A stretch of 64,000 nucleotides of DNA from positions 258,604-322,603 of the forward strand of contig CAZCYO010000002.1 of NCBI GenBank assembly GCA_964503265.1. Direction: 5' to 3'. Below the pieces are notes generated by a model, which saw only the letters and a list, made by a program, of their open reading frames with translations, ran no database searches and was not told where the DNA came from. This document shows, one piece after another, positions 32,724 through 57,569 of this stretch; positions within the stretch are counted from its first letter, which is position 1; every line of letters begins with the position of its first letter. A program made the translations under genes and the position numbers. This stretch comes from an uncultured Gammaproteobacteria bacterium. Lineage in GTDB: Bacteria > Patescibacteriota > Microgenomatia > Levybacterales > UBA12049.

Positions 32724-33181
32724 GTATCACGGGTATCACGGGTATCACAAGTATCACTGGCTTAAAGGTGATATTGTAATACTATATGGATAAATCCACA
32801 AAGAGCTATCATAAATTGATTCTCTGGCATAAAATGAAAGACTTGATCACTCTTACATATACCTTAACAGATAAGCTGCCTAAATCAGAAATATTTGGAT
32901 TAACATCTCAAATGAGGAGAGCGATGGTTTCTGTCCTGTCAAACTTTGTGGAAGGGTATCTTAAAAAAAGTACTAAAGAAAAGCTGCATTTTATGGAAAT
33001 TGCTGAGACATCATTGCTAGAATTAGAGGCACAGAGCGAAATTTGCCAAATTCTAGAATACTGGGGAGAGGAAGAATATCAATTGTTCGATAAAAAACGA
33101 TCTGAAGTTGGATATTTTTTACACCAATATATTAGTAAAATCTCCTCGTGATACTTGTGGTACCCATGCTACCCGTGGTAC
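32724..33181. mobile_element. Inverted-repeat-flanked cassette carrying four-helix-bundle (IVS-protein) gene, copy 1
   Basis: Left arm gtatcacgggtatcacgggtatcacaagtatcactgg (contains a 9-bp tandem repeated 4 times). Right arm is its about 85% reverse complement (cgtgatacttgtggtacccatgctacccgtggtac). Confidence 0.55.
32786..33151 (+). CDS. Four-helix-bundle protein (23S rRNA intervening-sequence protein family, PF05635/TIGR02436)
   Basis: Characteristic pattern ...SQMRRAMVSVLSNFVEGY...EIAETSLLELEAQSEIC... Paralogs at 46039-46407 and 57283-57558. Confidence 0.75.
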   Translation: MDKSTKSYHKLILWHKMKDLITLTYTLTDKLPKSEIFGLTSQMRRAMVSVLSNFVEGYLKKSTKEKLHFMEIAETSLLELEAQSEICQILEYWGEEEYQLFDKKRSEVGYFLHQYISKISS

Positions 33182-33185
33182 TTTC

Positions 33186-33794
33186 CTAATAGTTGCTTCT
33201 TCCCTCCATCGCTCGATCAAGGGTCGTGCTGTCTGCATATTCCAGGTCTGCTCCTATTGGAAGTCCCCGTCCAATGCGAGTAATTTTGAGATCAGGATGT
33301 TGTAGTTTAAGCTGTTTCGCAATATACATCGCCGTTCCCTCCCCTTCCATCGTCGGATTTGTCGCTAAAATTACTTCCATAATTCTTGATTCATTATTCT
33401 TGATTCTATTAAAAAGTTGTGCGATATAAATTTCATCTGGTCCGATGTTATTAAGTGGGTCAATTTTTCCGTGAAGAACGTGATATACGCCGTGGTATTT
33501 TCCACTTTTTTCAAGTGCCAGCACGTCAAGTGCCTGCTCGACGACACAGACGACTTCTTGATCTCGTTTCGTGTCACTACAAATACTACACGGATCAATT
33601 TCATCAATTGAAAGACAGATCGAACAAAGTTTCGTGCCTTTTTTAAGTTGTTCAAAAGAAGCTGCCATACGATCGAGTTCGCTCTGTGGGACATGGAGTA
33701 AATAAAATGTTAACCGCTGAGCACTTTTCGGACCGATACCAGGAAGTTTTTCAAACGTTTCAATGACATCTTGGATAGCTTTAGGAATTCTCAT
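33186..33794 (-). CDS. recR: Recombination protein RecR
   Basis: HhH (LPGIGPKSAQRL), C4 zinc finger (CSICLSI...CSICSD), Toprim domain. Confidence 0.95.
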   Translation of the reverse strand: MRIPKAIQDVIETFEKLPGIGPKSAQRLTFYLLHVPQSELDRMAASFEQLKKGTKLCSICLSIDEIDPCSICSDTKRDQEVVCVVEQALDVLALEKSGKYHGVYHVLHGKIDPLNNIGPDEIYIAQLFNRIKNNESRIMEVILATNPTMEGEGTAMYIAKQLKLQHPDLKITRIGRGLPIGADLEYADSTTLDRAMEGRSNY

Positions 33795-33804
33795 AATAAA
33801 AATT

Positions 33805-33884
33805 AGTCATCCTGGAAGGAGGCGAAGACGACTGATAAGATCTCATAAAAGTGGGATTCTATCGCTCTGCTCCAGAATGACAAT
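33805..33884. repeat. MITE-like element family A (inverted orientation)
   Basis: gtcatcctggaaggaggcg...gggattctatcgctctgctccagaatgaca. The second half is the reverse complement of the 5622-5653 unit. Confidence 0.55.
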
Positions 33885-33939
33885 AATCAAGTTATTGTAA
33901 CTCTTTTATGCTAAGTGGTGCAAATATAATTATATGATT

Positions 33940-34060
33940 ACTTTCTTATTTGTAATATGTGATCTGTGTAAAATTGGTATGTATTTGTAGTATTTGAGGT
34001 TGGTAGTATTGGATATTTGTAATATTGGTACGTATTTAATATGGTATGTTTGTGAGAGAG
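33940..34060. repeat. Iteron-like array of degenerate direct repeats (core TTGGTAYGTATTTG, 4 copies) at the low-GC border of the high-GC island
   Basis: ttggtatgtatttgtagtatttgaggttggtagtattggatatttgtaatattggtacgtatttaatatggtatgtttgtg. A 28-nt stretch (atttgtagtatttga--ttggtagtatt) recurs at 1171-1200. Confidence 0.5.
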
Positions 34061-34178
34061 GGATACACTTTTTCGTTTACATTCTTTTTTATCCTTATCG
34101 CAATTGATAAGGTAAAGCAGAATCTACACGAGTAGTGTTTGAGCCGGAAGCGCACTGTGCGCTCCCGGCCCGGGTGGT

Positions 34179-34955
34179 CTAGCTTTCCAGGGACGATCCC
34201 CAGGAAGTGACCGTTTGCTCCATCTCGGCCGCGCGTGTCGCGAACTGCGTCACTGCAACGAGATTGAGAACCTGCTTGCCAGGCTTCTTGCCATGCAGCT
34301 CTTCGCCCGCAGATGCGAGCTTCAGCCGAGCGACGGCTTCCTTCAGCTGCTTGTAGAAGTGTGGCAAATCCTTGCCAAGGGTGGTTTGCACCGATCCCTG
34401 GCCGCCACGGGCAATTTTGACTTCCTGCCACCCATCCGGGTAGACAGCCGTCAACGCGTCAAGCAGGTTGGCCTCGGGCTGATGCCCATTGCCGAACTGC
34501 TTACTCAGGACGAGATTAGCCAGCCAGTAGACACCGTATGTGTCACGTGGTGGCTGCTTCGCCTTGCGCTTCGCTTTGCCTTTCCCGTTAGACGGGACGG
34601 CAACCGGAGCCGGTGGGGGGAGCACAGCGTTGGGCTGACTCGGTGTAGTCGGAACAGCGTCCTGCTGTGCCTGACGACGAGTAGTCCGAGGCTTGGTTGC
34701 CACAACCGCCGTCTCGACCTTGTTGCGAGCCTTCTTAGGCTCGGTAGAAGGCGCAAGCGGATGTAGTTCCGCGAGCTGCGCACGCAGGAAGCGGCGCAGT
34801 GGTTCGGGGACTTCCATGTTGTTCATCGTTTTCCGGACGAAGTCCGGATCATCGCGCACCAACTTGGAAAATCCGTGAACCAGACGAAGGAGCTTCGATG
34901 AGCTCCCCACCAGTTGGCCAAAAACCTTGTCGGTCTGCTCAGAGATTGTAGCCAT
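34179..34955 (-). CDS. Island gene 3: hypothetical basic protein (258 aa) with Pro-rich linker and KGKAKRKAK patch
   Basis: High-GC ORF. Start at ATG 34953-34955 preceded by GAGGGGAG RBS. No recognisable domain. GC hairpin (34147-34171) after the stop. Confidence 0.5.
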   Translation of the reverse strand: MATISEQTDKVFGQLVGSSSKLLRLVHGFSKLVRDDPDFVRKTMNNMEVPEPLRRFLRAQLAELHPLAPSTEPKKARNKVETAVVATKPRTTRRQAQQDAVPTTPSQPNAVLPPPAPVAVPSNGKGKAKRKAKQPPRDTYGVYWLANLVLSKQFGNGHQPEANLLDALTAVYPDGWQEVKIARGGQGSVQTTLGKDLPHFYKQLKEAVARLKLASAGEELHGKKPGKQVLNLVAVTQFATRAAEMEQTVTSWGSSLES

Positions 34956-35053
34956 TGCTTCTCCCCTCTGACAGTAGTCCACAATTCCCAAGTCCAACTT
35001 GAACTCAGGGTGGTTGTCGACATGCTCGTATACAGAGCATCTAGTCCTCCTTA

Positions 35054-37048
35054 CTATACTCGCTTCTTGGCGAGTGATGTTCGGCGCTTACGATTCTTCT
35101 TCTTCTGAAGGTAGTTCGCGTGCAGCCGATCAAAGAGTAGTTCTTCTTGTTCCTCACGGTAGTCTTCCGACGCATGTGAGAAACAGAAGCGAGTAACAGC
35201 CCGCGCAACGATATGCGCGATATTTGCTTCGAAACGTGCTTCGTCCCCTGCCGCATACGATTCTGCAATCGTTGGAAACAGCGTATTGACGACGAGACGT
35301 CCGATGTGAAGCCGCTCTTCATACGGCCGATCCGGCCGCCGATAAAGCGGCGATGGTGTGATGTCCAGGCGTGTTAGCCTGTGACTCTCGTGTGGTGGTC
35401 GGCCTGTCAAGATACGAAACTCGATCTGCTGAGTGGGTTGCCCCTCTCGCAGTTGGAATTCTTCCTCGAGAATCGTTTCTTTCTTGAACTGAACTTTCGG
35501 AGTTATCATCACCTTTAGCGACACGCCGTGAGGCGCTTGCTGCCGGGTGAAACTTACCCGTCCACTCAGACCAGTGTTTCGACTGACCAGCACTTGATGA
35601 ATATCCATGAGATCCACATTGACATCTACCATGCCTTGGCCGTATTCGTTAACGACCTTGACTGAGATTGCCTGTGGATCACGAGGCGAACGAGATTGAT
35701 CCGTCGATCGCTTGGTGGATGTTTGCCGAGACGGCCGCGCAGTCGTGAGATCATGCTCATTATAAGCAGGAATCTCACTAATCGCTTCCATTGCCGCACT
35801 CGACATGTCAGTCATCGTAGCACGAAGGCTCGCATTTTCCAGACGCTCTTCAGCATCTTGGATAGCCTGCACGACGAGAGGTGTGAGCTTATCGTTAATC
35901 ACCTTTACCCAGTCGAGCATGTACTTGGTTGGCCTCAGCGCAGTTTTCGGTGCATTCCAGATAGTATTATCCGAGACGCCGACGAACGATGGGAAGACTA
36001 TGTATCCGCGGATCTTTCCAAGATTCCACGGCTCCTTATTCAACCCAGTGATCGTTGTGATCTCGAACTTGTCGGAACCCTTGAAACGCAGTTGGGGAGC
36101 CAGATTGACTCCCTTTACGTCGTAGAAGAGTTCGACAGAAATACTATCTGGTTCTGTATCGTATTCACCCCAGATCAACTCACCCCGGTAAAGCGGGATC
36201 CCTAGGTTGGCCGGAGCCTGAACAGGGATCTCGATCTGCTTTGCAGTAGACCGTTTCGCTTCGGGGGAGATCCGATCGAAGATGCTTATCTTGAATCCGA
36301 TCCGAAGATCTTCAGCGAACATGCTAGTGAGCATAGACGCCAGAGCCTTCGGACGTAGCTGGTCTTTCTCGCCTGGATCCAGATCGGAGACAGTGACACA
36401 CGTGCCATGCTCCATAACCTTTCCCCAGGCATCGTGGAGCGATTCTCCACGACCCGCGATGTCGTACTCGTAAGTTAGATCACCACGCGAGATGCTAGTG
36501 CGCGTAGGTGGCAGTAGAACGATAGTCGGATTTTCCGACTCAGTCATCGTTTCATCTTGCCATGCTTGGCGCATGCGATCCAGGTGAGCTCGCGTCAAAA
36601 GCGTCAGGCGATCAGCGTACTGACAGTATGCCAGAAAACCGATACCTTTCACTCCACGCTGGCTAGAAGACTTGCCACTGATCCCAATTCGTCGCATAAC
36701 CCATTCGATGGAGTAGCGACTAATCGAGTCCAGAGGCACAGCCTTTTCCAGGCTTGTTTCGTAGTCAGCGTCCAGATTACCTTGCGCGATGCTCTCTGCG
36801 AACTGTGTCAACCGTTGCCGGTCGACCTCGAGCATCTCAGGTACCATACCGTGACCGTTGCCGATCACGATCAATTTATTCTCCTCGATAACGATATGAA
36901 GCCAGGTTGCCCCGGCATCACGCTCGTTTTCGATGAGTTGTGCGAACGCTTGGACAGTCGATGCATAGATAGTGGCCAAGTGCAGGATTGCCTGATTGGC
37001 AAAGACCCGCATTACGCCACTCTTTGAGTGCTGTGGCTGCGAAGTCAT
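35054..37048 (-). CDS. Island gene 2: MutL/MORC-like GHKL (Bergerat-fold) ATPase with about 470-aa C-terminal extension and basic tail
   Basis: N-box LIENERDAGAT (compare MutL ELVENSLDAGAT), G1 region IVIGNGHGM (D-to-G variant of DNGxG), G2 lid SQRGVKGIGF. C-terminal KKKNRKRRTSLAKKRV. AAGGAG RBS 10 nt upstream. Stop of the upstream gene abuts the start. Confidence 0.6.
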   Translation of the reverse strand: MTSQPQHSKSGVMRVFANQAILHLATIYASTVQAFAQLIENERDAGATWLHIVIEENKLIVIGNGHGMVPEMLEVDRQRLTQFAESIAQGNLDADYETSLEKAVPLDSISRYSIEWVMRRIGISGKSSSQRGVKGIGFLAYCQYADRLTLLTRAHLDRMRQAWQDETMTESENPTIVLLPPTRTSISRGDLTYEYDIAGRGESLHDAWGKVMEHGTCVTVSDLDPGEKDQLRPKALASMLTSMFAEDLRIGFKISIFDRISPEAKRSTAKQIEIPVQAPANLGIPLYRGELIWGEYDTEPDSISVELFYDVKGVNLAPQLRFKGSDKFEITTITGLNKEPWNLGKIRGYIVFPSFVGVSDNTIWNAPKTALRPTKYMLDWVKVINDKLTPLVVQAIQDAEERLENASLRATMTDMSSAAMEAISEIPAYNEHDLTTARPSRQTSTKRSTDQSRSPRDPQAISVKVVNEYGQGMVDVNVDLMDIHQVLVSRNTGLSGRVSFTRQQAPHGVSLKVMITPKVQFKKETILEEEFQLREGQPTQQIEFRILTGRPPHESHRLTRLDITPSPLYRRPDRPYEERLHIGRLVVNTLFPTIAESYAAGDEARFEANIAHIVARAVTRFCFSHASEDYREEQEELLFDRLHANYLQKKKNRKRRTSLAKKRV

Positions 37049-37049
37049 G

Positions 37050-38162
37050 CTAGATAGCTCCTTTCATCCTTATGATGTTCTCCCTGTCTCCCGGGCTTTT
37101 GGTCAACGTATCGACGAGATCGAACAGCTCGCTCAGAGCATGTCCATACTTGATGACCAACGTATTTCGTCCTTCCGCATTCCCATCGAAATAGGGTTGC
37201 AGCAGGATAGTCAGTTGGCCAATCAGAGTCCCGATGTCGATAGGCATCTCAGTAGTCACTGTTTCCTGTCGCTCAGGTGTAACCCTAAGCAGCAGGACGA
37301 ACAGCTGATGGAGTTGATCGAAGTTCGGGCTCAGCGATTGCTGATCCTCCATCTCGATCTTCTTTTTCAACTGATCGATGACGAAGCTGAGTGCTTCCTC
37401 GAGAGTCGGTTCAGCGGGTTGCAGCTTTGTAGCTGCATTCCTCTGTCCCTCATCTACTTTGAAAGAAAGCGCCCCAACCAGATCGGTGAGGTGTCGGACT
37501 TGATTCTGTGTCTCACTCAGTTGTGCGTTGAGTTCTGCCACAATGCCATTACTGGCTTGCGTCAGTGACGCTAACAGCGGAGCAGCAACGGTATTGGCAA
37601 CTTGCGAAGCCATCGATGCTGCCCAGTTATCCATCCATCCATTGATGTAATCTCCGGGTGTCGGGAATGGAGACGCGGGAATCCGTCCAGCAGTAGCCGG
37701 TGAAGGCTGTGACTGAATGGGCGGCGTTGGCTGTGTTGGAGCCGTAGAAAGACGATGGTCTGGCCGACTTGCCGGCTCTTGCGGAACCTGTTGCGGTTGT
37801 GCCGTAGCATGGCCATTTCGCGTAAAGATCTCCGGTAGTGGTTGCTGCCTTGTGAGCCACTGGGTGTACTTCTGCGGAGTCCATGCACGGATAATTTCCT
37901 TGCGAACTCCACGAGTCTCAGTGATCCGTGGCGGAATCTTGGTAGGATCTGCAGACACGATGCCGATACGAAAAAGTTTCGCATAGGCTTCGACATCAGA
38001 CGAGATCGCTTCGGCGATCGAGATCCCATTGAAAGATTTACCGATTCCTAGCAACTCGCCAATCTCAGACTTGAACTTCAAGCCGAGCTGCTGGCGTTTT
38101 GCTTGGATCTCATCCCGAATTGGGTGAGTCCACCACTCGTAGGGTGACTTGGCGCGCACCAT
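37050..38162 (-). CDS. Island gene 1: hypothetical protein (370 aa), ordered N-terminal domain, Pro/Gln-rich linker, alpha-helical C-terminal domain
   Basis: Start MVRAKSPYEWW preceded by a perfect AGGAGG RBS 7 nt upstream. No recognisable domain. Stop TAG overlaps the RBS region of the GHKL gene (operon). Confidence 0.5.
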   Translation of the reverse strand: MVRAKSPYEWWTHPIRDEIQAKRQQLGLKFKSEIGELLGIGKSFNGISIAEAISSDVEAYAKLFRIGIVSADPTKIPPRITETRGVRKEIIRAWTPQKYTQWLTRQQPLPEIFTRNGHATAQPQQVPQEPASRPDHRLSTAPTQPTPPIQSQPSPATAGRIPASPFPTPGDYINGWMDNWAASMASQVANTVAAPLLASLTQASNGIVAELNAQLSETQNQVRHLTDLVGALSFKVDEGQRNAATKLQPAEPTLEEALSFVIDQLKKKIEMEDQQSLSPNFDQLHQLFVLLLRVTPERQETVTTEMPIDIGTLIGQLTILLQPYFDGNAEGRNTLVIKYGHALSELFDLVDTLTKSPGDRENIIRMKGAI

Positions 38163-38399
38163 GATGTACCTCCTGATATATATGAAACGTTCAGTAACCG
38201 CGGTACCTAAGTACCTCCTTTTTCCCCTTACGGGGAACTTGTAGTAACTCCCAAAGAATGGGAGTTTTCCCTCTCTCACTTGTCAATGATCCTAACCCCC
38301 TGACAGTACTTTTCAGTACGCCAAACGTTATTTGTCTAGCTAAGAGGGAAAGTGCGGAAATTATAGCAGATTTTTAACTTATAGTAAACAAATGCGAGG

Positions 38400-39296: not shown

Positions 39297-39390
39297 TACG
39301 ATAAATTTACACTATTCCCAGTGTTTTGTACATCATAATTGTTGAGTTTCTTCACTAGTGAAACTCTGAATCTTTGCATTTTGAAACTTT

Positions 39391-39681
39391 CTACTTTCCC
39401 CCAAGTAAGCCACCGAGGCCTCCCATTCCACCACTCATTGATTGCAACTTTTTCGCCGCAACTTCTTGTGATTTCTTGATCGCTTCATTGATAGCATCCT
39501 TGATATCATTATCTGATCGACCTTGTGCTGAAATAGATTTGATTTTCTGATCTCCAGTAATAACTACTTTAATACCATACTTATCAACTTCTATTTCTTC
39601 AGCTGCCAATTGTCGCTGAATCATCAGCGCCTGATCACGCATTTTTTTAAGCTCACCTAATTGTCCAAATGGATTATTCAT
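39391..39681 (-). CDS. ybaB: Nucleoid-associated protein YbaB/EbfC
   Basis: 96 aa, MNNPFGQLGELKKM...GGMGGLGGLLG signature. Confidence 0.85.
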   Translation of the reverse strand: MNNPFGQLGELKKMRDQALMIQRQLAAEEIEVDKYGIKVVITGDQKIKSISAQGRSDNDIKDAINEAIKKSQEVAAKKLQSMSGGMGGLGGLLGGK

Positions 39682-39704
39682 TTTATTTCACCACCTTTCA
39701 CATC

Positions 39705-39794
39705 TGTCATTGCGAGGAACGAAGTCGAAGATCCTCGAACGGGGCAATCTCTTATTATTTTCTATAAGATCGCCGCGCTTCGCTCGCGATGACA
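39705..39794. repeat. MITE-like element family C (TGTCATTGCGAGG...CTCGCGATGACA termini)
   Basis: tgtcattgcgaggaacgaagtcgaagatcctcgaacgg...cgcgcttcgctcgcgatgaca. Half-copies at about 7128-7145, 19214-19240, 12470-12500. Confidence 0.55.
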
Positions 39795-39801
39795 AAGATT
39801 T

Positions 39802-41879: not shown

Positions 41880-42019
41880 GAAAGTTAAAAGTGAGAAGCA
41901 AAAAGGCAAAAGCACAATTAAAAATTACGAACTAGATCCTGAATCAAGTTCAAGATGACAAGTCAGTTTTTACTTTTGAACTGTATTTTTGAGTTTTGAC
42001 TTTTACTTTTTGCATTCCT
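41880..42019. repeat. Palindromic intergenic repeat (AAAGTTAAAAGTGAGAAGCAAAA...TTTTGACTTTTACTTTTTGC), family D
   Basis: Related palindromic copy at 44397-44490 (aaaagttagaagtcaaaa...ttttgacttttcagtttttacttct). Confidence 0.5.
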
Positions 42020-44081: not shown

Positions 44082-44396
44082 CTATTTCATAGGTCCTAAG
44101 AGGTGAATATGTAAATGGTCAACGTCTTGAAATCCCCCACCATTTATTTGAATTCGATAACCCTTATTTTCTAGTGCTTTTTCTGTAATCATTTTTTGAA
44201 TTACAATACTTATTTCTTTCATAAGATGCATATCTTCGATAGCGACAAATTCTGATACATGTTTTTTAGGAACGATGAGTAAGTGTACTGGTTTTTGTGG
44301 ATGAATATCAGGAAATACCATTACAGCTTCGTCCTGATAAACGAAATCTGCTGGAATTTTCCCGTCTCTGATTTTACAAAATAAACAATCTGACAT
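44082..44396 (-). CDS. HIT-family (histidine triad) nucleotide hydrolase
   Basis: C-terminal HLHIHLLG triad. Confidence 0.9.
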   Translation of the reverse strand: MSDCLFCKIRDGKIPADFVYQDEAVMVFPDIHPQKPVHLLIVPKKHVSEFVAIEDMHLMKEISIVIQKMITEKALENKGYRIQINGGGFQDVDHLHIHLLGPMK

Positions 44397-44490
44397 AAAT
44401 TAAAAGTTAGAAGTCAAAATCACAAGTAAAATGTGAAAACTTTTGCTTTTTTAGATGTGCTTTTGACTTTTCAGTTTTTACTTCTCAATC
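44397..44490. repeat. Palindromic intergenic repeat, family D
   Basis: See 41880-42019. Confidence 0.5.
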
Positions 44491-45408
44491 TTAGTATAAC
44501 TCTTTCAAAACCTCAATAATTCTCTGCAAACTAAGATTGGTTGGAACTTGATTGGGATTTTTCGATCCTCCATTTAGTAACATTTTCTTTGAAACATGAA
44601 GAAACCACGTCGCATCGGGATCCATTTTCGAAAATCGTTCATATGCGAGAGTCAGATCAATATCAGTAGTTTTGTTTTCTGGAGGACGGACTTTAATACG
44701 GACAAATCCACCTTTAGGATCTTTTCGAACAACCAAATGATACCCCATTTTTTGTGCAAGTTTTAATACTGAGTCATTTGCGGTATCGAACCCTACCCCT
44801 TTTCCCCTCTTCGTTTCAAAGACTATTCCTTTACCATCAATCTCTTCTTCAGCAGATATTCTATTTTCAAATGTATGAAAAAGCGAATCAAGCACCTCGC
44901 GTCCAAATTCCACATAATAATCATGCTCTTCAGGTTTAAGTAATTTTAGTCCTTCAAGAACTCCCAGTATGGTAAACTCATACCGATCGGCAGCGGCTTC
45001 GGGCCAAAATACTTCTTTAAAATGATCTGTTTCAACAATAAATTGTACAACACGTGATACCGCCTTTTTATGAACATCTGTCATAGAAGATCCATGTGCT
45101 TCAATGGTAGTTTTTACATAATCCCATGCACGACTAGTCCCCGATACACTCGAATCAGATGTTTCATGATGATCAAGTGGTCCAAGTCCTGTATCTACAT
45201 GAATTACTTCATCTTTTCCTTGTACTTCAATCGTTTCAGTATTCTCACCTAGTTTCGCCATTTGATATTTGCCAGGTCCTGTTCTTCTCCCACCTGCCGG
45301 AACAAATTCGACAGCAGCATCTCCCCACCCAGAAAGAAACTTTTTAATAACCCAAACTCCGCCAATTGCATCCCAATCGGGGGAAATATGTGTAACAATA
45401 ATTTTCAT
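44491..45408 (-). CDS. DHH-family phosphoesterase
   Basis: Motif I HISPDWDAIGG, DHH motif (GLGPLDHHE). Confidence 0.7.
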   Translation of the reverse strand: MKIIVTHISPDWDAIGGVWVIKKFLSGWGDAAVEFVPAGGRRTGPGKYQMAKLGENTETIEVQGKDEVIHVDTGLGPLDHHETSDSSVSGTSRAWDYVKTTIEAHGSSMTDVHKKAVSRVVQFIVETDHFKEVFWPEAAADRYEFTILGVLEGLKLLKPEEHDYYVEFGREVLDSLFHTFENRISAEEEIDGKGIVFETKRGKGVGFDTANDSVLKLAQKMGYHLVVRKDPKGGFVRIKVRPPENKTTDIDLTLAYERFSKMDPDATWFLHVSKKMLLNGGSKNPNQVPTNLSLQRIIEVLKELY

Positions 45409-45508
45409 TATGGCAAGTATAGCGAATTATGACTCAGTTGCAAAGCTGCAAGCCTCAAGTTGCAAGATCTTATGAAGCTTGAATCTTGCGACTTGAGGCT
45501 AGTATGGC

Positions 45509-46009: not shown

Positions 46010-46447
46010 AAGTTAGTAGATAATAGTTAGAAGATAGAATGAATAAGATTAATTCATTTAAAGATCTTTATGCTTGGCAAAAAGGACACGCTCTTGTACT
46101 CCTTGTCTATCAAATCACTAACCATTTACCTCAACGAGAACAATTTGCACTTATCAGCCAAATGCAACGCGGAGCAATTTCAATAATAAGTAATTTAGCT
46201 GAAGGATTCTCAAGAAGAGGAATCAAAGATAAAATGCATTTCTATTATATAGCTCTTGGATCTACTACAGAAATTGAAAACCAATTGTTAGTTTGTAAAG
46301 ATCTAGGTTATATTAATGAAATTATATTCAACGATGCAGATTTATTAATAACCGAGGTAAAAAAATTAATAAATGGACTAGTTAAAAGCACCAAAAATCG
46401 TAGTTAACCACTATCTCCTAACTCCTATCTTTTAACTACTCTTCCTA
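46008..46447. mobile_element. Inverted-repeat-flanked cassette carrying four-helix-bundle gene, copy 2
   Basis: Left arm gaagttagtagataatagttagaagatag versus right arm reverse complement gaagagtagttaaaagataggagttaggagatag. The right arm overlaps the proS stop region. Confidence 0.45.
46039..46407 (+). CDS. Four-helix-bundle protein (23S rRNA IVS protein family), paralog 2
   Basis: ...SQMQRGAISIISNLAEGFSR...LGSTTEIENQLLVCKDLGYI pattern. Confidence 0.75.
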   Translation: MNKINSFKDLYAWQKGHALVLLVYQITNHLPQREQFALISQMQRGAISIISNLAEGFSRRGIKDKMHFYYIALGSTTEIENQLLVCKDLGYINEIIFNDADLLITEVKKLINGLVKSTKNRS

Positions 46448-47630
46448 TCACTTCGTCTAAACTAACTAATTCTATCTTTTCTTCGACTCTTTTCTTCCAT
46501 TCTATCTGCTCGCCGGTTTTATTACTTACAACAAGGCGAACTGGTATTCCTAGTAAATCTGCGTCTGCAAATTTCTCACCAGCGCCTATATCTCGATCAT
46601 CAAAAAGCACTTCTATACCCGCTTTTTGTAACTGATCATATACTTCATTTGCCTTCTCATTAAGACCAACTAAATGAACTTGAAAAGGCGCGACACTTTC
46701 AGGCCAGATAATTCCTTTTTCGTCATGTGATGCCTCTACAATCGCTCCGACTAGTCTCGTCATGCCAATACCATAACTTCCAAACCACACAGGCTTTTTG
46801 CTTCCTCCGGAATCTGTGTAGTATGCTCCCATTTTCTCAGCGTACGTTGTACCAAGTGGGAAAATGTTTCCAACCTCAATTGATTTAACTGATTCAAGTG
46901 TTGGATTATTCATGTCTTCATCGGTCATAATTTCTTTATTTTTCCAGAACTTCCATCCATCAGCGTAATAAATCACGTCTTCTCCCGCATCAGTTTTGAG
47001 TTGATATTCATGAGTATGATTTTTAGTAAAGACACCACCATCTGCTTCTGCTATTACAACATCAAGTCCCATTCGTTTAAATGAAGCCATATATGCATCA
47101 GATACCTCCCAATAATATTTCATGAGATCTTCTTCAGTTGCGTGAGCACTATATAGATCTTTCATGAGAAATTCTCGACCACGTAAAATTCCAGATTTTG
47201 CTCGAAGTTCTTGACGAAATTTTGTTGAGAAATGATAGAGTTTTATTGGAAGATCTTTATAACTATTTAAATGTTTACGAATTAAATCCATGACGATTTC
47301 TTCATGAGTAAATGACAGGGCATATTCTCTCTCCTCTTTTTTAAATTGATACATTACTTCAGCAGCACTGTCCCATCGCCCTGTTTCATTCCAGATCTCT
47401 TTAGGATGCAGTAATGGCATGAGAACTTCCTGTGCTCCAGTCAGATCCATTTCTTCACGAACAATTTGTTCGATTTTTCGCTCCACACGGCGCCCAAGTG
47501 GAAGCAGGGTGAATGAACCCGCCATTAATTTATCAATATATCCCCCTCGCATGAGAAGTTGTGCATTAATCGCGACTTCTTCAGCAGGTGCACTTCTTAC
47601 TGTTTTTGCAAATGATTGTGAATATTTCAT
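46425..47630 (-). CDS. proS: Proline--tRNA ligase (bacterial type lacking editing insertion)
   Basis: Class II motifs (FRQELRAKSGILRGREFLMKD), strong similarity to the ProRS N-terminus (HEEIVMDLIR). Confidence 0.85.
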   Translation of the reverse strand: MKYSQSFAKTVRSAPAEEVAINAQLLMRGGYIDKLMAGSFTLLPLGRRVERKIEQIVREEMDLTGAQEVLMPLLHPKEIWNETGRWDSAAEVMYQFKKEEREYALSFTHEEIVMDLIRKHLNSYKDLPIKLYHFSTKFRQELRAKSGILRGREFLMKDLYSAHATEEDLMKYYWEVSDAYMASFKRMGLDVVIAEADGGVFTKNHTHEYQLKTDAGEDVIYYADGWKFWKNKEIMTDEDMNNPTLESVKSIEVGNIFPLGTTYAEKMGAYYTDSGGSKKPVWFGSYGIGMTRLVGAIVEASHDEKGIIWPESVAPFQVHLVGLNEKANEVYDQLQKAGIEVLFDDRDIGAGEKFADADLLGIPVRLVVSNKTGEQIEWKKRVEEKIELVSLDEVIGRVVKR

Positions 47631-47858
47631 AAAAAAACCTCGTCACTGCATTCCACAATTACTATGTGAAATACAAGGACGAGGCAATCTCGTGGTACCA
47701 CCTTGTTTTTCCGCCAGTTGGCGGACTCATTACTCTTTTACGGTTTTTGCTCCGTACTGCTTCTCGCAGTCAGCCCCGATGTAAATTCGGGATCCCGTAT
47801 GAAAACTATCATCGAGACTCATCTGGTAGGATGCCAGACTATAACGCTTTATAAATTT
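47631..47858 (-). promoter_or_regulatory. T-box riboswitch leader (tRNA-Pro responsive) with terminator
   Basis: Minus strand contains the T-box sequence AAGGUGGUACCACGAG (forward 47689-47704). Terminator CCTCGTC...GACGAGG + U7 (47631-47684). Candidate specifier AUCCUACC (CCU Pro codon). Confidence 0.7.
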
Positions 47859-47886
47859 ATTATACAGTCAATTCATTGTTTGTCAA
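47859..47886 (-). promoter_or_regulatory. Extended -10 promoter (TTGACA-16-TGnTATAAT) driving the T-box leader/proS
   Basis: Minus strand TTGACAaacaatgaattgacTGTATAAT. Confidence 0.55.
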
Positions 47887-47928
47887 TCTACGCTTTACAT
47901 TTATATTATTACCGCTATAATTCGTTCC

Positions 47929-49313: not shown

Positions 49314-49314
49314 A

Positions 49315-50253: not shown

Positions 50254-50271
50254 TCGCGACCATTATACATT

Positions 50272-51741: not shown

Positions 51742-51804
51742 AGAGATGATTATAGACTCCTTATACCCTAAACGCTAGACGCTAGTTTCTAATCAGTTGT
51801 TACG

Positions 51805-52146
51805 TTACTTTTTTGTACTTAAATATGCGGCAGGAAGAAGTCCGAGTAATGCACCACCACCGATGGCGAGTACTCCTGATAGAACGACAAGGAGAATAGG
51901 CCCGAAGTTATTCATAATGTTTTTTTTCTTAATTAACAGATATGAAACAGTAATACATGAAATAATTGAGACCAGCGAACCGACACGAACTCCCCCTTCA
52001 TATCCTTGGATTGAACTAATTATCGAACCTAAAATCCCAGCAGCTAACGCTCCAGCAAGTACTATCAGAATAAGATACGCAATGTAAAAGCCAAATGCTT
52101 CTTTAGAAGTACGTTTATATTTAAAATCAGTTAATTTCTTGAACAT
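51805..52146 (-). CDS. Small membrane protein (3 TM)
   Basis: Hydrophobic ORF. Confidence 0.4.
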   Translation of the reverse strand: MFKKLTDFKYKRTSKEAFGFYIAYLILIVLAGALAAGILGSIISSIQGYEGGVRVGSLVSIISCITVSYLLIKKKNIMNNFGPILLVVLSGVLAIGGGALLGLLPAAYLSTKK

Positions 52147-52206
52147 AGAATTATTGTAATTTTTTTTTGAAAAACAAACAAGAGAGAAAAATCATGTACA
52201 TACTAA

Positions 52207-52998
52207 CTATAGTATGTTCTGGTCAGTTATTAACACTGTTTTTTTTGCAATTTCTGGTCTTTTTAAAAAGCGTGAAGGGATATCTTCCTCAGGTCCATCA
52301 GAAAACATCATTCGTATCGCATCTTTTTTATCCTGACCAAAAACGAGTACAACGATAATATCCATCATTGATAGTCCAAGGAAAGTCATACTTATTCGCT
52401 CTCTAAATGTCCCAGATTCATCATTATATTCAGAAACTAATACATCCTTTTGTTCTGCATCGAACATCGGATTATGAAAAGCTTGTCCCGAACTTAATGA
52501 GGTATCACTTCTATTCCCAGCGATCCCAGCAGTGTGGCCATCAAGACCAATCCCAAGAGTCGCAATACTTTTTTGATATGTCGTATTTAAACTTCGCAAC
52601 TGTTCATCGTAGGAGTTAGCAGAATCACTACGACTCTTATTTTCCTGAAGTATCGGATAAAACGGTATCCCTCTCATTTCCGTATAGCGAAGAAGTCCTG
52701 TCTCTTTAAGCATTTTCTCATTACTTTTATCGTGAAACCTATCACCAAATCGTTCATCAACGAGTCCGATTGCTCCAGGCCTAAGTACTTCTTCGTGTGC
52801 AAGATCTTTATATAACTCTTTTGGTGTTCTTCCTCCAGATAAATATAAAACAGTTTTACTGTCAACGAGTGTATACAGAAGTTCTTTTGCGAGGGTAAAT
52901 CCTTTCGTCACAGTGGGGACAACTGAAATAATCATTCCAGATTGCTCATAAGTGTTTCGCTCTTTGTCTTTTACGATACTAAATAAAGATTTCTGCAT
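52207..52998 (-). CDS. pgl: 6-phosphogluconolactonase (NagB/RpiA/Pgl fold)
   Basis: LSGGRTP and GIGLDGHTAGI motifs. Confidence 0.8.
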   Translation of the reverse strand: MQKSLFSIVKDKERNTYEQSGMIISVVPTVTKGFTLAKELLYTLVDSKTVLYLSGGRTPKELYKDLAHEEVLRPGAIGLVDERFGDRFHDKSNEKMLKETGLLRYTEMRGIPFYPILQENKSRSDSANSYDEQLRSLNTTYQKSIATLGIGLDGHTAGIAGNRSDTSLSSGQAFHNPMFDAEQKDVLVSEYNDESGTFRERISMTFLGLSMMDIIVVLVFGQDKKDAIRMMFSDGPEEDIPSRFLKRPEIAKKTVLITDQNIL

Positions 52999-53043
52999 GG
53001 ATTAGCCATAAGTATACAGCATTTGAGGGATAATTTGTGAAGA

Positions 53044-55737
53044 TTAGTTAGGTGCGTGAACAGTATTCCCACCGTTATCGAAATCTCGCTGGAGAGCTCG
53101 ATCATTAAGGAAATTTGATGCACCATATAACTGTTGAATACGATATTGAACTGTTTGGATATCTGCTTCTACTGTAGATATTCGCTGTTTCAATCCTGAT
53201 GTAAATGGAGTTGTTACAGCATTACTTCCAAGTGGGTCTGTCCACCAAATCTCTGAGCCGCCATTATTAGAAACACGATTTCGGCCAAAATATGCTGTTC
53301 GATGAAGTCCTTTAAACGCTGCTTGAGGTGAATTCCATGCAGCGCCTTTCACTCCTTTGGCGCAGTTTCCTGAATATGGAAGACCTTGGTTGCATCGATC
53401 TTGATTATAGCCAATTCCGTTTGTTCCAGCTGGGTCTACGTATCGTACAGGATCGAGCACATCCCACTGTCTCCCGTGTTCTGCAATCATCTTTCCAGCC
53501 GGAGTCTGTATTCTTAGATCGCCTTCCCACAGTTCGTACGGATTAAAATAATTCACACCAGGATTTAAGGTAGCAAAATTATCTAAACAATACTTGTCGA
53601 CCATATTTCGTCCAAGTGAATCACTGTGAACTGCATTTGGTAATTTACTTATGAGAGGATCGGTAACGACACATGAGCCATTAGCATTTTTCCCATCAGG
53701 ACAAACGTTTGTCGATCGATCACTAAAGCAAAAGCGTTTAAATCCACCTGGTTCACCAAATGCCATCATTCCTGTCAGAAGTACTGTGTTCGTTGGATAA
53801 TACGCTGGAGCATTAATATTGTTTACGTTCACACTTTCACAAGTCGAGTGGAAAATAACTTCATGTAAATTATTTCTGACAGCATCAGCTGAATTGGTTC
53901 CTTGATGAAATTTATGAAGATGAGTACATACAACTCCCGTTGGTAAGTACGTATTAGAGTTAGCGGCACTATTATAGTAAGGAACGTTAACACCATTAGT
54001 TCCAGAAAGCTGCGCCATCGTATGAGTACTATTACCAGCCATTTCAGCTTCTGAATTTACAAACTCAATTTTATGTCCAACGTGATCTTCGTGTCTTACA
54101 AATAATGAGTCCCGGCCTTCTTGATTGTAGTATTGATCCATATGCTCATTCGCCATTCCAAATGGAATCCCAGCTCTGTCTCCCGGAGTGATTTTCCCAT
54201 CAGCAGCGATTGCTAATGGAGAGATAACACCATCACCATTGATATCTTTACCAAAGAATTTATAAATTTCATCCCAGTGCATATATGATTGTGGGTTCGA
54301 ACCATGTTCATGGCCAAAGTAACATTTACCAACACCAGTAACAGGGTTTGTTACAACTGCTGGATGCCATGTCGGATATTTTATGCCATCGTATGCGATT
54401 ACATAATATTGATTATGTGCAGTAACGACATCTGTACCATCATCACATTTGTCATAGAGAGGATTAGGTGCATTTTTACCTCCCACTTTCCATGCCATCA
54501 TAGACATACTTTCACCGTTCATAGTCATGCTTGGAACTGGAGTTGAATTACTAACTAGTGAAATCGTGCTAGAAAATACTTTTTCAGTTCCATTTGTTGA
54601 TCTAAATTTGACGTATAACGTTTTCATCCCAACAGTCGTATTACTAAATGTATATGATGCATAGGTAGGATTAGCTGTTATTGGAGCAATTGTGATAACG
54701 TTTTTTGTAAATCCAGCATCTTCAGCTAGAACTATATCTTTGGTGTATTCAGGCAGTGGAGTTGGTGTACTGGTTGCAGTTGGAATAAGTGTGGGTTTTA
54801 TCGTGGGGATAGCTGTGGGTGGAACTGAAGTTATCGCTGTTGTAGGTGTTGCTGCAACTGTTACAGTAGGAGTAGTCGATCCTGTTTCAAACGTTACCAG
54901 TAACTTTGGCGCGTTAGCAAGCCCGTTATCAATACTACTGACAAACTTACGGCCATATCCTGTCCCTTTACCTTTTAGAATAAGAGATAAATTATTTCCA
55001 GACTGCCAGGACGCCCCGTTAACAATCTCTTGAATGATTGGAGTAATAGAATCTAATTTATACGCAGTATTTGCTTTCCATTTCACATTTGAAGAATGAT
55101 TTACCCGAGCCGTTGTTAACACCCGACTTGAAGGAAGAGAGGTCGAGGTAAACGAAGCACTCGTCCCGCTTTTTTCTCCAGCATATTGAAATTGCATGGA
55201 TATCCATGCATCTTGAATAGAATAGACTTGCAGCGTTGCACTAATTATTTTCGCCCCTTTAGGAATTAATACTCCAGTAAAACGAAGCCCAGTATAACTT
55301 GCACCAGTCGGTCCTCCTGTTCCAAGCCAGACACTCTTACTTGAATCATCCAGTATTCCTTTTACTTCATTTACATCATCCGAAGAAGCATCACCTTGAA
55401 TACTAGCAGCTAATTGTCCAAGCACATTAGTAGTAGGGACTTTACTCATAGAAATATTTGGTTGGACAGCCCATGGAGATGTAAGAGCAACACGAACCAT
55501 TGATTGTGTGGTTTGTGTTATCAGATTATTTGCATCATCAATAAATGCTACTTCTTGACTAGCTGACGCATGTTGTCTGATATCCTGAGATGTTTTGGCT
55601 AAAATGAGAAAAAGAGGGAGAATTAGGATGAGAGAGAGTGTTATAAAAAGACTTACCGATTTTTTTCTTCGTAACAATTGATTAACAAAAGTTGCTGAAG
55701 AACGTATATATTCTTTCATATTATATGATATAAGCAT
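53044..55737 (-). CDS. Large exported hypothetical protein (897 aa) with N-terminal TM/signal and Thr/Pro linker
   Basis: Signal-anchor, TPT-rich linker (TVTVAATPTTAITSVPPTAIPTIKPTLIPTATSTPTP), Cys-containing C-terminal region. AT-rich promoter region upstream (55738-55943). Confidence 0.5.
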   Translation of the reverse strand: MLISYNMKEYIRSSATFVNQLLRRKKSVSLFITLSLILILPLFLILAKTSQDIRQHASASQEVAFIDDANNLITQTTQSMVRVALTSPWAVQPNISMSKVPTTNVLGQLAASIQGDASSDDVNEVKGILDDSSKSVWLGTGGPTGASYTGLRFTGVLIPKGAKIISATLQVYSIQDAWISMQFQYAGEKSGTSASFTSTSLPSSRVLTTARVNHSSNVKWKANTAYKLDSITPIIQEIVNGASWQSGNNLSLILKGKGTGYGRKFVSSIDNGLANAPKLLVTFETGSTTPTVTVAATPTTAITSVPPTAIPTIKPTLIPTATSTPTPLPEYTKDIVLAEDAGFTKNVITIAPITANPTYASYTFSNTTVGMKTLYVKFRSTNGTEKVFSSTISLVSNSTPVPSMTMNGESMSMMAWKVGGKNAPNPLYDKCDDGTDVVTAHNQYYVIAYDGIKYPTWHPAVVTNPVTGVGKCYFGHEHGSNPQSYMHWDEIYKFFGKDINGDGVISPLAIAADGKITPGDRAGIPFGMANEHMDQYYNQEGRDSLFVRHEDHVGHKIEFVNSEAEMAGNSTHTMAQLSGTNGVNVPYYNSAANSNTYLPTGVVCTHLHKFHQGTNSADAVRNNLHEVIFHSTCESVNVNNINAPAYYPTNTVLLTGMMAFGEPGGFKRFCFSDRSTNVCPDGKNANGSCVVTDPLISKLPNAVHSDSLGRNMVDKYCLDNFATLNPGVNYFNPYELWEGDLRIQTPAGKMIAEHGRQWDVLDPVRYVDPAGTNGIGYNQDRCNQGLPYSGNCAKGVKGAAWNSPQAAFKGLHRTAYFGRNRVSNNGGSEIWWTDPLGSNAVTTPFTSGLKQRISTVEADIQTVQYRIQQLYGASNFLNDRALQRDFDNGGNTVHAPN

Positions 55738-55943
55738 AACTCATCTGTACTATCTGTCAACAGATAATTTAAGTTTACTTAAATTTAAATTAATTATCCC
55801 TTAATGATAATTTAAATAAATATATACTCGTTTTTATCATATAGCAGATTAAAATTTAAAAAAAACTAATGTAGGCATCGACTCATATCATAACAGCTTA
55901 CAATAACAATGTAAAAAATAACACAAAGATAAACGAAAATAGT

Positions 55944-57125
55944 TTATTTGAAACTGTGGAAAACGTCTTTGAGGGTGATTAGTACAATAAGCGCAAGCAG
56001 GACAGTCATACCTATTTGATGGATATATCCTTCTATTCGAGGATTCATTTTCTTTCTGGTAATACCTTCAATCACGATAAAAAATAATCGTCCACCATCA
56101 AGAGCTGGAATAGGAAGAACATTAAAAATAGCCAGAGACATAGAAAGTAGCCCAGTTAAATTCAACAACTGGATTAATGCCTCTTTTGGAGGAAGGTGAA
56201 GAAGGCCACCAACAACCTGAAAAATCATCACTGGCCCACCTACTGCTTCACCTGCGATACTCGGATTTTTCTCTTTTACCGATACACTAATCAGGCTTTT
56301 TAACACATCGAAATTGTACGCAACTAAGTTCAATGGATGTGTTATACCTGAGAAAACTTTCTGTAATGGTGTTTCATACGTCAGTACCACGACAGGAATG
56401 CCGAAAGCAACTCCGAGCGCCCCCTGACCTACCGGTGGATTAGTACGAGGTGTAACATGAACAGTATACATAGTATTAGTCTGCATATTTTGTAACGTAA
56501 CATCTAGTTTTTTCCCTTTATTGAGTAAAATAATTTTTTGGAATGTTTCTACTGTTTTTATTTCTTTACCATCAACACTGATAACCTTTGAGAATTTTTT
56601 AATCCCTGACTGCTCTGCTGGAGATTTAGGTGCAACATCAGCAATTGTGGTATCTATTTTTTTAGTTTGATTAACACCAAAAAAATGGTAATTAGTTAAG
56701 AGTGGTAATTCTGTTTTAAATCCAGAAAGCCCCATAAAGAGATAGTAAACAAAAAATGCGAGAAATAAATTCATCACAACGCCAGCTACAACCACCAGTA
56801 ATCGCTGATAGACAGGACGTGTGAAAAATGCCCGTTCTAAATCTTTTTTATTGGTGGTTTGTGATTTGTTTTTTCCAGATGAAATACTTCCTCCACCGGC
56901 TTCGTCTTCTCCATATAATTTTACAAACCCACCAAATGGAAGCCAATTAATGGAATAAATTGTCTCACCAAACTTTTTCCCAAATGCTCGTGGTGGAATT
57001 CCCCATCCAAATTCTTCAACTTTAATCCCGTAAAATTTCGCAACAAAAAAATGTCCAGCTTCATGGATAAGCACGAGAATAGAAAGAATGAAAACAAAAA
57101 CAAGAATATTAATTATGATATCCAT
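55944..57125 (-). CDS. rseP: Site-2 (RIP) zinc metalloprotease RseP
   Basis: HEAGHFF HExxH in TM1, PDZ domain, LDGGRLFF motif. Confidence 0.9.
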   Translation of the reverse strand: MDIIINILVFVFILSILVLIHEAGHFFVAKFYGIKVEEFGWGIPPRAFGKKFGETIYSINWLPFGGFVKLYGEDEAGGGSISSGKNKSQTTNKKDLERAFFTRPVYQRLLVVVAGVVMNLFLAFFVYYLFMGLSGFKTELPLLTNYHFFGVNQTKKIDTTIADVAPKSPAEQSGIKKFSKVISVDGKEIKTVETFQKIILLNKGKKLDVTLQNMQTNTMYTVHVTPRTNPPVGQGALGVAFGIPVVVLTYETPLQKVFSGITHPLNLVAYNFDVLKSLISVSVKEKNPSIAGEAVGGPVMIFQVVGGLLHLPPKEALIQLLNLTGLLSMSLAIFNVLPIPALDGGRLFFIVIEGITRKKMNPRIEGYIHQIGMTVLLALIVLITLKDVFHSFK

Positions 57126-57145
57126 AGAGGAAGTTTATTATAACA

Positions 57146-57569
57146 AAGCAAAGGGCATAGAGCAAAGGGCTAAGAGTTTCTTACAAGAGAATTTCTAAAT
57201 GCTCTTATTTTGCGTGAAAGTATATCTGCTTTGTCGTATAACTCTTTAAGTTGCGTCGAAGAAATGTAATCTTGTTCTTTTGCTAATTGTAAGTGAGAAA
57301 CAGACCGTATAAGGATTTAATTGCTATTTCGAGGTAATGAGCAAAGTCTTTCTTTGAGCTACTCCCCGATCCTTCGGCTATGTTTGCAGCAATAGAGGCA
57401 GCACATCTTCTTAATTGATCTGTTAACGAAAAAAGCTCTCTAGAGGGAAATCGTTCTGTTAATTTATAAATAAGTTTTGCAAATAGGATTGCATCTCTCC
57501 AAATTTCTAGTTCTTCAAACCGAAAAGCCATATTGAATACTCTATGCTCTAAGCCCTTTGCTCTATGCA
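57146..57569. mobile_element. Inverted-repeat-flanked cassette carrying four-helix-bundle gene, copy 3
   Basis: Left arm aagcaaagggcatagagcaaagggctaagag (57146-57176). Right arm ctctatgctctaagccctttgctctatgc (57540-57569) is its reverse complement. Confidence 0.55.
57283..57558 (-). CDS. Four-helix-bundle protein (23S rRNA IVS protein family), paralog 3
   Basis: MAFRFEELEIWRDAILFAKLIYKLTERFPSRELFSLTDQLRRCAASIAANIAEG... The N-terminal extension of the longer ORF is encoded by the IR arm and overlaps frr. Confidence 0.7.
   Translation of the reverse strand, partial: KGLEHRVFNMAFRFEELEIWRDAILFAKLIYKLTERFPSRELFSLTDQLRRCAASIAANIAEGSGSSSKKDFAHYLEIAIKSLYGLFLTYN

Follow-up and report, generated by a model that had tools for sequence, protein, structure and literature searches.

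Intervening sequences (IVSs) interrupt helices 9, 25 or 45 of bacterial 23S ribosomal RNA (rRNA), and in Leptospira, Coxiella burnetii and Azospirillum lipoferum the loop of the IVS is filled by an open reading frame (ORF) of the PF05635 family of four-helix-bundle proteins. RNase III cuts the stems of rRNA IVSs (PMC4990558 and works cited there), and it is this excision, without religation, that defines IVS behaviour. The Coxiella IVS is 428–444 nt long, with a 28-bp stem and three or four GACAGAT heptamers before the start codon; RNase III cuts have been mapped in the stem, at the first repeat (PMC4990558). A homologous four-helix-bundle fold occurs in Avd, the accessory variability determinant of diversity-generating retroelements (DGRs). 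Avd forms pentamers, whose RNA target is a stem-loop immediately downstream of the template repeat; a duplex forms between distal sequences that flank this repeat (10.1101/2023.10.23.563531). Cyanobacteria possess short tandemly repeated repetitive (STRR) sequences—tandem 7-bp intergenic units that can form hairpins and whose function is unknown (PMC2670836). The family and its fold have been described before, as have its occurrence in rRNA IVSs and its homology to Avd. Two CRISPR-oriented surveys place the family near cas loci or CRISPR arrays and leave flanking repeats unmentioned (PMC3936711, PMC10910872). Here, we describe three genes of this family, termed c1, c2 and c3, in 64,000 nucleotides of contig CAZCYO010000002.1 (positions 258,604–322,603; ‘the window’). 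Each is enclosed by its own pair of repeat-built inverted arms, and all three lie between protein-coding genes. We consider it likely that the three loci are IVS-type hairpin cassettes resident in operons. A cassette comprises a gene of ~120 codons for an S23p/Avd-like, probably pentamer-forming protein bracketed tightly by two inverted arrays, each of 3–5 units of 7–9 nt. The rRNA IVS looks like one special case of this widespread, self-contained cassette. The genes and arms are as follows:

32721–32757, plus strand: c1 5′ arm, an inverted repeat containing four tandem 9-mers, GTATCACGG GTATCACGG GTATCACAA GTATCACTG (array 32724–32759)
32786–33151, plus strand: c1 gene, 121 aa, four-helix-bundle protein (PF05635/TIGR02436)
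33148–33184, plus strand: c1 3′ arm, complementary 9-mers YCGTGRTAC, overlapping the TGA stop codon
46008–46037, plus strand: c2 5′ arm, heptamers GAAGTTA GTAGATA ATAGTTA GAAGATA
46039–46407, plus strand: c2 gene, 122 aa, four-helix-bundle protein (PF05635/TIGR02436)
46411–46440, plus strand: c2 3′ arm, inverted repeat overlapping the last codons of the convergent proS
57547–57568, minus strand: c3 5′ arm (sense orientation), GCATAGA GCAAAGG GCTTAGA G, the periodic array reaching 57542
57177–57537, minus strand: c3 gene, four-helix-bundle protein, its frame broken near 57306 by a 1-nt deletion
57155–57176, minus strand: c3 3′ arm (sense orientation), periodic array 57147–57176 of period 14 (Tandem Repeats Finder, TRF)

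A preliminary description of this DNA had reported that each gene is bracketed by imperfect inverted repeats, and this holds. The arms are 37 nt long and 89% complementary in c1, 30 nt and 80% in c2, and 22 nt and 95% in c3; the whole elements measure 464, 433 and 414 bp, respectively. We scored inverted repeats by Smith–Waterman local alignment of the upstream flank with the reverse complement of the downstream flank, and took as null 590 pseudo-genes placed across the window (mean score 8.0, standard deviation 1.1). The scores of c1, c2 and c3—27, 15 and 19.5—were reached by zero, one and zero of these pseudo-genes, and no other real gene of the window scores above 13. The arm duplexes have energies of −57.3 kcal/mol (z −11.5), −24.4 kcal/mol (z −5.0) and −38.7 kcal/mol (z −7.8), in the same order, and when whole cassettes are folded the terminal stem closes around the ORF in both the minimum-energy and the centroid structures of all three, so that folding, the check proposed at the outset, gives stable stems throughout. 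All arms of all three copies are tandemly periodic. The 4× 9-bp repeat reported for the left arm of c1 is recovered by TRF at 32724–32757 (period 9, 3.8 copies, 92% matches); units are spaced 9 or 18 nt apart in the right arm, and the period is 14 in the arms of c2 and c3, which we read as 2 × 7. The three cassettes show no excess of promoters or terminators over shuffled sequence, and Rfam at its gathering threshold gives no match in the window.

That the three genes belong to the family first found in 23S rRNA IVSs is not in doubt. Their PF05635 scores are 95.5, 114.2 and 91.5 bits for c1, c2 and c3 (curated cut-off 33.8; E-values 3e-27, 4e-33 and 5e-26), and their TIGR02436 scores 95.5, 106.6 and 84.2 bits (curated cut-off 24). 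They are the only copies in the 64-kb window (tblastn), and the proteins are 37–40% identical to one another. The family motif GxxRxxxSxxxNxxE(G), quoted in PMC3936711, is present as QMRRAMVSVLSNFVEG in c1, QMQRGAISIISNLAEG in c2 and QLRRCAASIAANIAEG in c3; Q42, R45, S49, S52, E56 and G57 do not vary across 32 homologues, and N53 hardly does. AlphaFold2 models c1 as four long helices (pLDDT 95.6). In Foldseek, the model superposes on XCC0516 (2gsc) with a TM score of 0.88–0.95 and a root-mean-square deviation of about 1 Å, followed by BT_0352 (2rld) and then Avd (4dwl and 8ub7, TM about 0.78). c2 matches 2gsc by sequence (E 4e-16). c1 belongs to a large and tightly conserved subfamily with more than 400 homologues, the best 120 of which are 64–78% identical and occur in Microgenomates; the close homologues of c1 and c2 that carry source names come from the Microgenomates group and other bacteria of the candidate phyla radiation (CPR). 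c1 is not a basic protein (isoelectric point 6.9). PADLOC finds no defence-system match for the window, and neither a scan of viral contigs with the three-protein alignment nor tblastn of phage records found relatives. The coordinates first given for c1 and c2 are correct. Those for c3 (57283–57558) are not: its true extent is 57177–57537 on the minus strand, and the mechanical ORF stops at 57283 because the deletion near 57306 shifts the frame, as seen in a three-frame translation and in alignment with the intact orthologue at the retrieved locus L089. The PF05635 match of c3 spans residues 8–77, and c3 is either a pseudogene or a sequencing error.

Placement of the cassettes outside rRNA, another element of the preliminary description, is likewise sound. 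Rfam, and blastn with the E. coli rrn operon (positive control, an Azospirillum operon), detect no rRNA in the window, and the neighbours are RecR and a hypothetical protein for c1, a hypothetical protein and ProS for c2, and the ribosome recycling factor (RRF) and RseP for c3. The fit is tight. The 3′ arm of c1 ends 2 nt before the recR stop; the 5′ arm of c2 begins on the upstream ORF's stop codon and leaves a single nucleotide before the ATG, and its 3′ arm overlaps the last codons of proS (46425–47630, minus strand), which is convergent to c2. c3 stands in line between frr and rseP, its 5′ arm 10 nt after the frr stop and its 3′ arm about 30 nt before rseP begins. None of the three has a transposase, integrase or reverse transcriptase beside it.

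Stem-plus-ORF had been recognized as the layout of an IVS, and comparison with two rRNA IVSs upholds this. A tblastn search of plasmid records found an unannotated family match on replicon AZO_p2 of Azospirillum lipoferum 4B. It lies inside a 23S rRNA gene (L119 2792–5990, by Rfam) at a point where the alignment with E. coli 23S rRNA breaks between 1163 and 1186, that is, in helix 45. The insertion is an IVS of 473 nt (L119 3943–4415) around a PF05635-type ORF, with 36-nt arms (3945–3980 and 4378–4413) made of five GAGGACR heptamers and their complements. This IVS and the published Coxiella IVS share with the window cassettes a family ORF that fills the loop, a terminal stem of 22–37 bp formed by inverted repeats, tandem arms of the heptamer type, and a length of 414–473 nt. 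The window cassettes thus have the anatomy of ORF-bearing IVSs in all tested respects except location: instead of 23S helices 9, 25 or 45, they occupy the recR/hypothetical, hypothetical/proS and frr/rseP spacers. It should be stressed that the likeness is one of sequence design; the excision by which IVSs are defined is a putative property of the window cassettes.

The design extends well beyond this genome. We sampled one genome per species, and obtained 80 loci with 84 homologous genes from ~20 phyla, including Bacteroidota, Planctomycetota, Acidobacteriota, Cyanobacteriota, Verrucomicrobiota, Chloroflexota, Gemmatimonadota, Nitrospirota and several CPR groups. As controls, we shifted the same gene-sized window within these loci, 591 times in all. 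The inverted-repeat scores of the homologues exceed the 99th percentile of the controls in 80% of cases and the 95th in 87%; after dereplication at 60% amino-acid identity, 28 of 37 clusters are positive. The 80 loci contain no rRNA (blastn with the E. coli rrn operon; Rfam on 20 loci). In 20 related loci, Rfam at gathering threshold reports nothing covering the arms, and therefore no described RNA family accounts for them. The gene-in-repeat-hairpin design is the norm for this gene family outside rRNA; relatives retain the flanking repeats, loss of which in related genomes had been named as grounds for abandoning the idea. The arm period is 7 in 33 loci, 8 in 16 and 9 in 5, with a median of 3.9 units per arm, rarely more than 5, and the arrays are equally regular on both sides. 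The start codon or ribosome-binding site lies within the 5′ arm or 0–30 nt from it. C is scarce in the 5′ arm (8%) and G in the 3′ arm. We considered this bias as a signal of orientation and rejected it, since either strand of any such hairpin has the same composition.

Several retrieved loci have features of their own. At L102, a second, unrelated four-helix-bundle cassette with TTGATAA heptamer arms (1307–1663, minus strand) lies about 0.8 kb from a c1-type cassette and is followed by tRNA-gene-like sequence; cassettes, then, can cluster. On the Nostoc sp. PCC 7120 plasmid pCC7120gamma (NC_003267.1, about 15000–15570; L120 1400–1990), the family gene sits between two insertion-sequence transposase genes, with CTTCAAA arrays upstream and CTTCTGC/CCTCTGC arrays downstream, and is possibly a rearranged cassette. 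At L112 2501–2533 and L119 3926–3955, gene callers and mechanical ORF reading carry the four-helix-bundle ORF upstream through the 5′ arm, to 132 aa and 143 aa, and some neighbouring ORFs terminate within arms (e.g. carA in L117). Automatic annotation can thus be distorted by arms: start codons occur inside them, and the ORFs of neighbours are extended through them.

A cassette is inherited and relocated as a whole, its arms with its ORF, as the c1-type cassettes show. Five of these are available, the window copy and four retrieved copies, in five different neighbourhoods:

Window: between recR and a hypothetical gene
L102: between ykuD and rpoD-dnaG
L106: between a DUF8128 ATPase gene and a PIN gene
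L109: between a DUF8128 ATPase gene and an integrase gene
L112: between an HTH_17 gene and a hypothetical gene

All five carry GTAYCACRR units at a spacing of exactly 9 nt, 3–4 per arm, with a conserved core and a variable 2-nt spacer; 35 units were counted in total, against a background density of 0.18 per 80 nt. Comparison of these cassettes shows saturation at four-fold degenerate sites (9–57% identity, ~33% on average); the arms are 77–92% identical, like first and second codon positions, although these are values from local alignments, which tandem arrays inflate somewhat. Elsewhere in the family, c3-type cassettes share a GCWWAGN heptamer and the relatives of c2 share TAAGAA-like heptamers, and arm similarity tracks protein identity: it is at the level of shuffled sequence when proteins are less than ~50% identical and rises steeply above 60%. 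Conservation is a little higher in left arms than in right arms. The sequence of the arm unit is specific to the protein subfamily. The repeats had been called unique to each copy; this is so within the window, and it is not so across genomes, where the arms are conserved by subfamily.

Pairing between the two arms is maintained while their sequence drifts. Among 259 pairs of related cassettes—pairs that are not independent, so that a p-value should not be taken literally—complementarity of a cassette's own arms stays at 20.6–21.0, whereas, when the left arm of a cassette is set against the right arm of its partner, the value drops with protein divergence, from 18.2 to 14.2 to 10.3.

Family members are usually co-oriented inside strings of genes. 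Hardly any spacer sets them apart, and they show neither a promoter nor a terminator of their own. Both neighbours run in the direction of the cassette in 25 of 32 dereplicated clusters (binomial p = 0.006 against an expectation of 0.55, which was assumed, not measured), and the median distance from the upstream stop codon to the first base of the 5′ arm is 1.5 nt. One cassette of the c2 type separates carA from carB, and its arms overlap both coding ends.

How cassettes come and go can be seen at the c3 site, which a metagenome scan with Frr provided for comparison of filled and empty states; the comparison covers this site only. The spacer between frr and rseP is filled by a c3-orthologous cassette in the window, L083, L087 and L089/L090, and is cleanly empty in L091/L092, L085/L101 and L088, where 40–100 nt separate the two genes. 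Empty sites in related genomes, which it had been proposed to look for, are thus found. L089 (filled) and L092 (empty) come from one metagenome, have flanks that are 83–87% identical, and are sisters on the Frr tree; L083 (filled) clusters there with L085 (empty). The difference between filled and empty sites is the whole element, arms included, and no target-site duplication is present at the L089/L092 junctions. The divergence of c3-type proteins is close to that of Frr (63% identity to L089 for the former, 59% for the latter), which fits vertical descent, and we therefore favour old residence at frr-rseP with repeated precise loss over site-specific gain. The L087 orthologue is frameshifted by a 1-nt insertion in an A-run (about 1066–1075) and its arms have decayed; its frameshift and that of the window copy are independent, and the window arms are still 95% complementary. 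c3 is decaying, and c1–c3 are old residents of this genome rather than recent insertions. c2 has an orthologue in the equivalent proS-adjacent site of L115. The suggestion that the cassettes are mobile is therefore only partly sustained. The c1 type occurs in five neighbourhoods, and frr-rseP is filled or cleanly empty in close relatives; at the same time, the window copies are old paralogues with unrelated arms, c3 diverges as host genes do, and neither a target-site duplication nor a transposase is found. The frr-rseP site also appears to be an insertion hot spot for other DNA: in two close relatives, L084 (1514–2447) and L100 (133–1775), the spacer holds a different insertion of ~1.6 kb in place of the cassette, with ORFs of 73 and 308 aa, and about 350 nt of other sequence at L094.

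How might such an element persist between essential genes? We propose that a cassette is transcribed by read-through within the transcript of its host, that its two arrays would then pair into a stem of 22–37 bp from which the ORF is looped out, and that RNase III may cut this stem as it does in rRNA IVSs. Insertion could be tolerated in essential transcription units (rRNA, frr-rseP and carA-carB) because the cut would remove or insulate the cassette at the level of RNA. The solved family members 2gsc and 4dwl are pentamers, from which we infer that the cassette proteins, too, probably form pentameric rings. More speculatively, the subfamily-specific units might be binding sites for the cassette's own ring protein, after the manner of Avd, and binding to its own arrays would couple the protein to its transcript, or its DNA, for regulation or propagation. 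The parallel with Avd has bounds. The cassette duplex brackets the protein's own ORF, Avd hidden Markov models score below their cut-offs, and no reverse transcriptase or template/variable repeats adjoin the window cassettes.

A number of observations weigh against this proposal. The c2 stem is weak, with 80% complementarity and z −5; no inverted repeat is detectable in about a fifth of the family; and the heptamer arrays on the two sides of the pCC7120gamma copy are non-complementary. c1 is antisense to both of its neighbours, so that a read-through transcript cannot yield its sense RNA. Selection purely on sense RNA would normally enrich stems for G·U pairs. In our stems, GT/TG mismatches number 63 and AC/CA mismatches 75 over all loci, or 23 and 37 after dereplication, so that this test for the strand under RNA selection gives no sense-strand signal; the lack of G·U enrichment is mild evidence against selection purely at the RNA level. 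The Y/R position of the c1-type unit varies without compensation, T-G in the window and C-A in L112. These last two results suit constraint on DNA, or homogenization, at least as well as they suit RNA pairing. The protein of the Coxiella IVS appears not to be made (PMC4990558). And transcription, cleavage and protein binding are all putative steps in our proposal.

Two other explanations are live, and neither is mutually exclusive with an IVS-type cassette. One is that the cassette is a DNA-level mobile element, small and non-autonomous or unconventional, whose arrays are terminal or subterminal repeats like the multiple protein-binding sites at the ends of Tn7, Mu or Ac/Ds, and which is moved either by a host enzyme acting on DNA hairpins or by the four-helix-bundle protein; pairing in RNA would then be incidental. 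The five unrelated neighbourhoods of the c1 type speak for this, as do the clean presence and absence between flanks 83–87% identical and the patchy filled/empty pattern on the Frr tree. So, too, do the motif arrays, which are the same in inverted orientation on both strands, their units having a conserved core and a spacer of 2 nt that varies; the failure of G·U to be favoured over A·C, expected of constraint on DNA; and the way in which cassettes fill the whole intergenic spacer and overlap the coding ends of their neighbours. Terminal inverted repeats, presence/absence polymorphism and inverted short-motif arrays at both ends are also reminiscent of transposon ends and of miniature inverted-repeat transposable elements (MITEs). 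Against it, no transposase, integrase or reverse transcriptase accompanies the cassettes (though an enzyme acting in trans from elsewhere in the genome is possible), and the filled/empty pair displays no target-site duplication. The window lacks near-identical copies, its paralogues being 37–40% identical with unrelated arms, and the divergence of the c3 type, close to that of Frr (63% versus 59%), fits vertical residence with losses. Unlike MITEs and insertion sequences, then, cassettes have no transposase beside them, no target-site duplication and no multi-copy family of identical members, and their arm sequence, unlike that of MITEs, co-diverges with the enclosed ORF. We know of no catalytic site for DNA strand transfer in a helical bundle of 120 aa. 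On balance, we judge a DNA-level element unlikely as the full explanation, albeit one to be taken seriously.

Lower still in our estimation, although deserving of mention, is the possibility that the arms are an autoregulatory RNA operator. A pentameric ring would wrap the 5′ array as TRAP wraps its spaced triplets, in competition with pairing to the 3′ array, and binding would control the translation or stability of the protein's own small mRNA; the hairpin would be a ‘panhandle’ device rather than a signal for RNase III or mobility. Such an operator would explain why the unit is conserved well beyond neutral sites and is subfamily-specific, and it agrees with the typical count of 2–5 units per arm in a family whose solved members (2gsc, 4dwl) are pentameric, with the position of the start codon or ribosome-binding site within or 0–30 nt from the 5′ arm, with the slightly better conservation of the left arm, and with the binding of the homologue Avd to RNA beside its gene. 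It sits less well with arms that are equally regular arrays on both sides, with units of 7, 8 and 9 nt that one ring geometry would need to fit, with a c1 protein that is not basic (pI 6.9), and with a Coxiella protein that seems not to be expressed (PMC4990558). A very improbable explanation, finally, is that ordinary intergenic hairpins—terminators, or the generic AT-rich stems common in this genome—flank these genes by chance, or that the genes are DGR remnants carrying Avd. The window does have ORF-less intergenic hairpins with heptamer-like arms, and the proteins do have weak, sub-threshold matches to Avd models: 37.5, 19.9 and 18.8 bits for c1, c2 and c3 with NF033474 (cut-off 80), and 33.3 and 22.5 bits for c1 and c2 with PF22296 (cut-off 40), c3 having no listed match. 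But the control distributions largely refute it. The inverted-repeat scores are far outside the window null and no other gene of the window is so bracketed; the association holds in ~80% of homologues from ~20 phyla, compared with 1–5% of controls; and the cassettes have no intrinsic-terminator pattern. As for DGRs, the Avd scores of 19–38 bits are below the 80-bit cut-off, and no reverse transcriptase is found among the neighbours, which include RecR, ProS, RRF and RseP.

The IVS-type cassette remains our preferred reading, and it invites a broader conjecture, which we regard as possible rather than probable. S23p-type proteins and their flanking arrays may form cognate pairs, in which a ring-shaped protein recognizes a 7–9-nt unit repeated 3–5 times on each side of its own gene. 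The hairpin gene would be an autonomous, ancient and occasionally mobile module that survives in essential transcripts through removal at the RNA level; rRNA IVSs would be its rRNA-resident members, and ORF-less heptamer hairpins, the STRRs and those of the window, its decayed derivatives. STRRs are described as ORF-less, unlike cassettes, and yet some Nostoc members of the family are flanked by up to 14 GAGTGCT heptamers (L072); a link between STRRs and four-helix-bundle genes is not mentioned in the literature searched.

The ORF-less hairpins of the window lie between genes at 31973–32112, 41880–42017, 44396–44498, 59331–59401 and 45450–45500, with arms of 24–35 nt composed of degenerate, heptamer-like tandem units (e.g. 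GAAATAC/GAAATAA and GTATCAA/GTATTTA/GTAGTAA). They resemble cassette arms and the cyanobacterial STRR hairpins, to which they, 31973–32112 for example, may be analogous; they may be ORF-less relatives of the cassettes, or just long terminators. Other intergenic regions, at 10829–11281, 12270–12533, 946–1365, 47631–47928 and 15411–15532, fold with z of −4 to −8 relative to shuffled sequence. Without an Rfam match, these are candidates for divergent housekeeping RNAs, or for novel noncoding RNAs, of a CPR genome; the last of them holds a GC-rich, terminator-like hairpin. A dispersed repeat of 32 nt (TATTTGTAGTATTTGA..TTGGTAGTATT.GA) occurs at 1181–1212 and 33982–34013, the copies identical at 29 of 32 positions, both intergenic and each upstream of the start of a minus-strand gene. 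The second copy lies inside a longer 9/16-nt tandem array (33947–34037) that adjoins recR. ARAGORN reports a tRNA-Ser with anticodon ACT at 24192–24277 on the minus strand; an unmodified wobble A is unusual for serine, and this may reflect a miscalled anticodon loop or an odd CPR tRNA.

In the full-text literature searched, which takes in few subscription journals, we found no description of a repeat-built hairpin with a gene outside rRNA across phyla, of subfamily-specific tandem arms conserved beyond neutral sites, or of operon-embedded cassettes whose sites are cleanly filled or empty. For about 30 years, the origin and function of bacterial rRNA IVSs have been open questions, as have those of the very large four-helix-bundle protein family, which annotation places in most phyla, frequently with many copies in one genome. 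The cassettes shift the question away from rRNA, in that the hairpin-plus-ORF design travels with the gene wherever the gene is located. The homology to Avd, which binds RNA next to its own gene, offers a mechanistic lead, and cultivable carriers exist in Flavobacterium, Bacteroides and Nostoc. A cognate interaction between protein and repeat, insulation by RNase III inside polycistronic mRNAs, and a link to heptamer hairpins of the STRR type have all now become testable.

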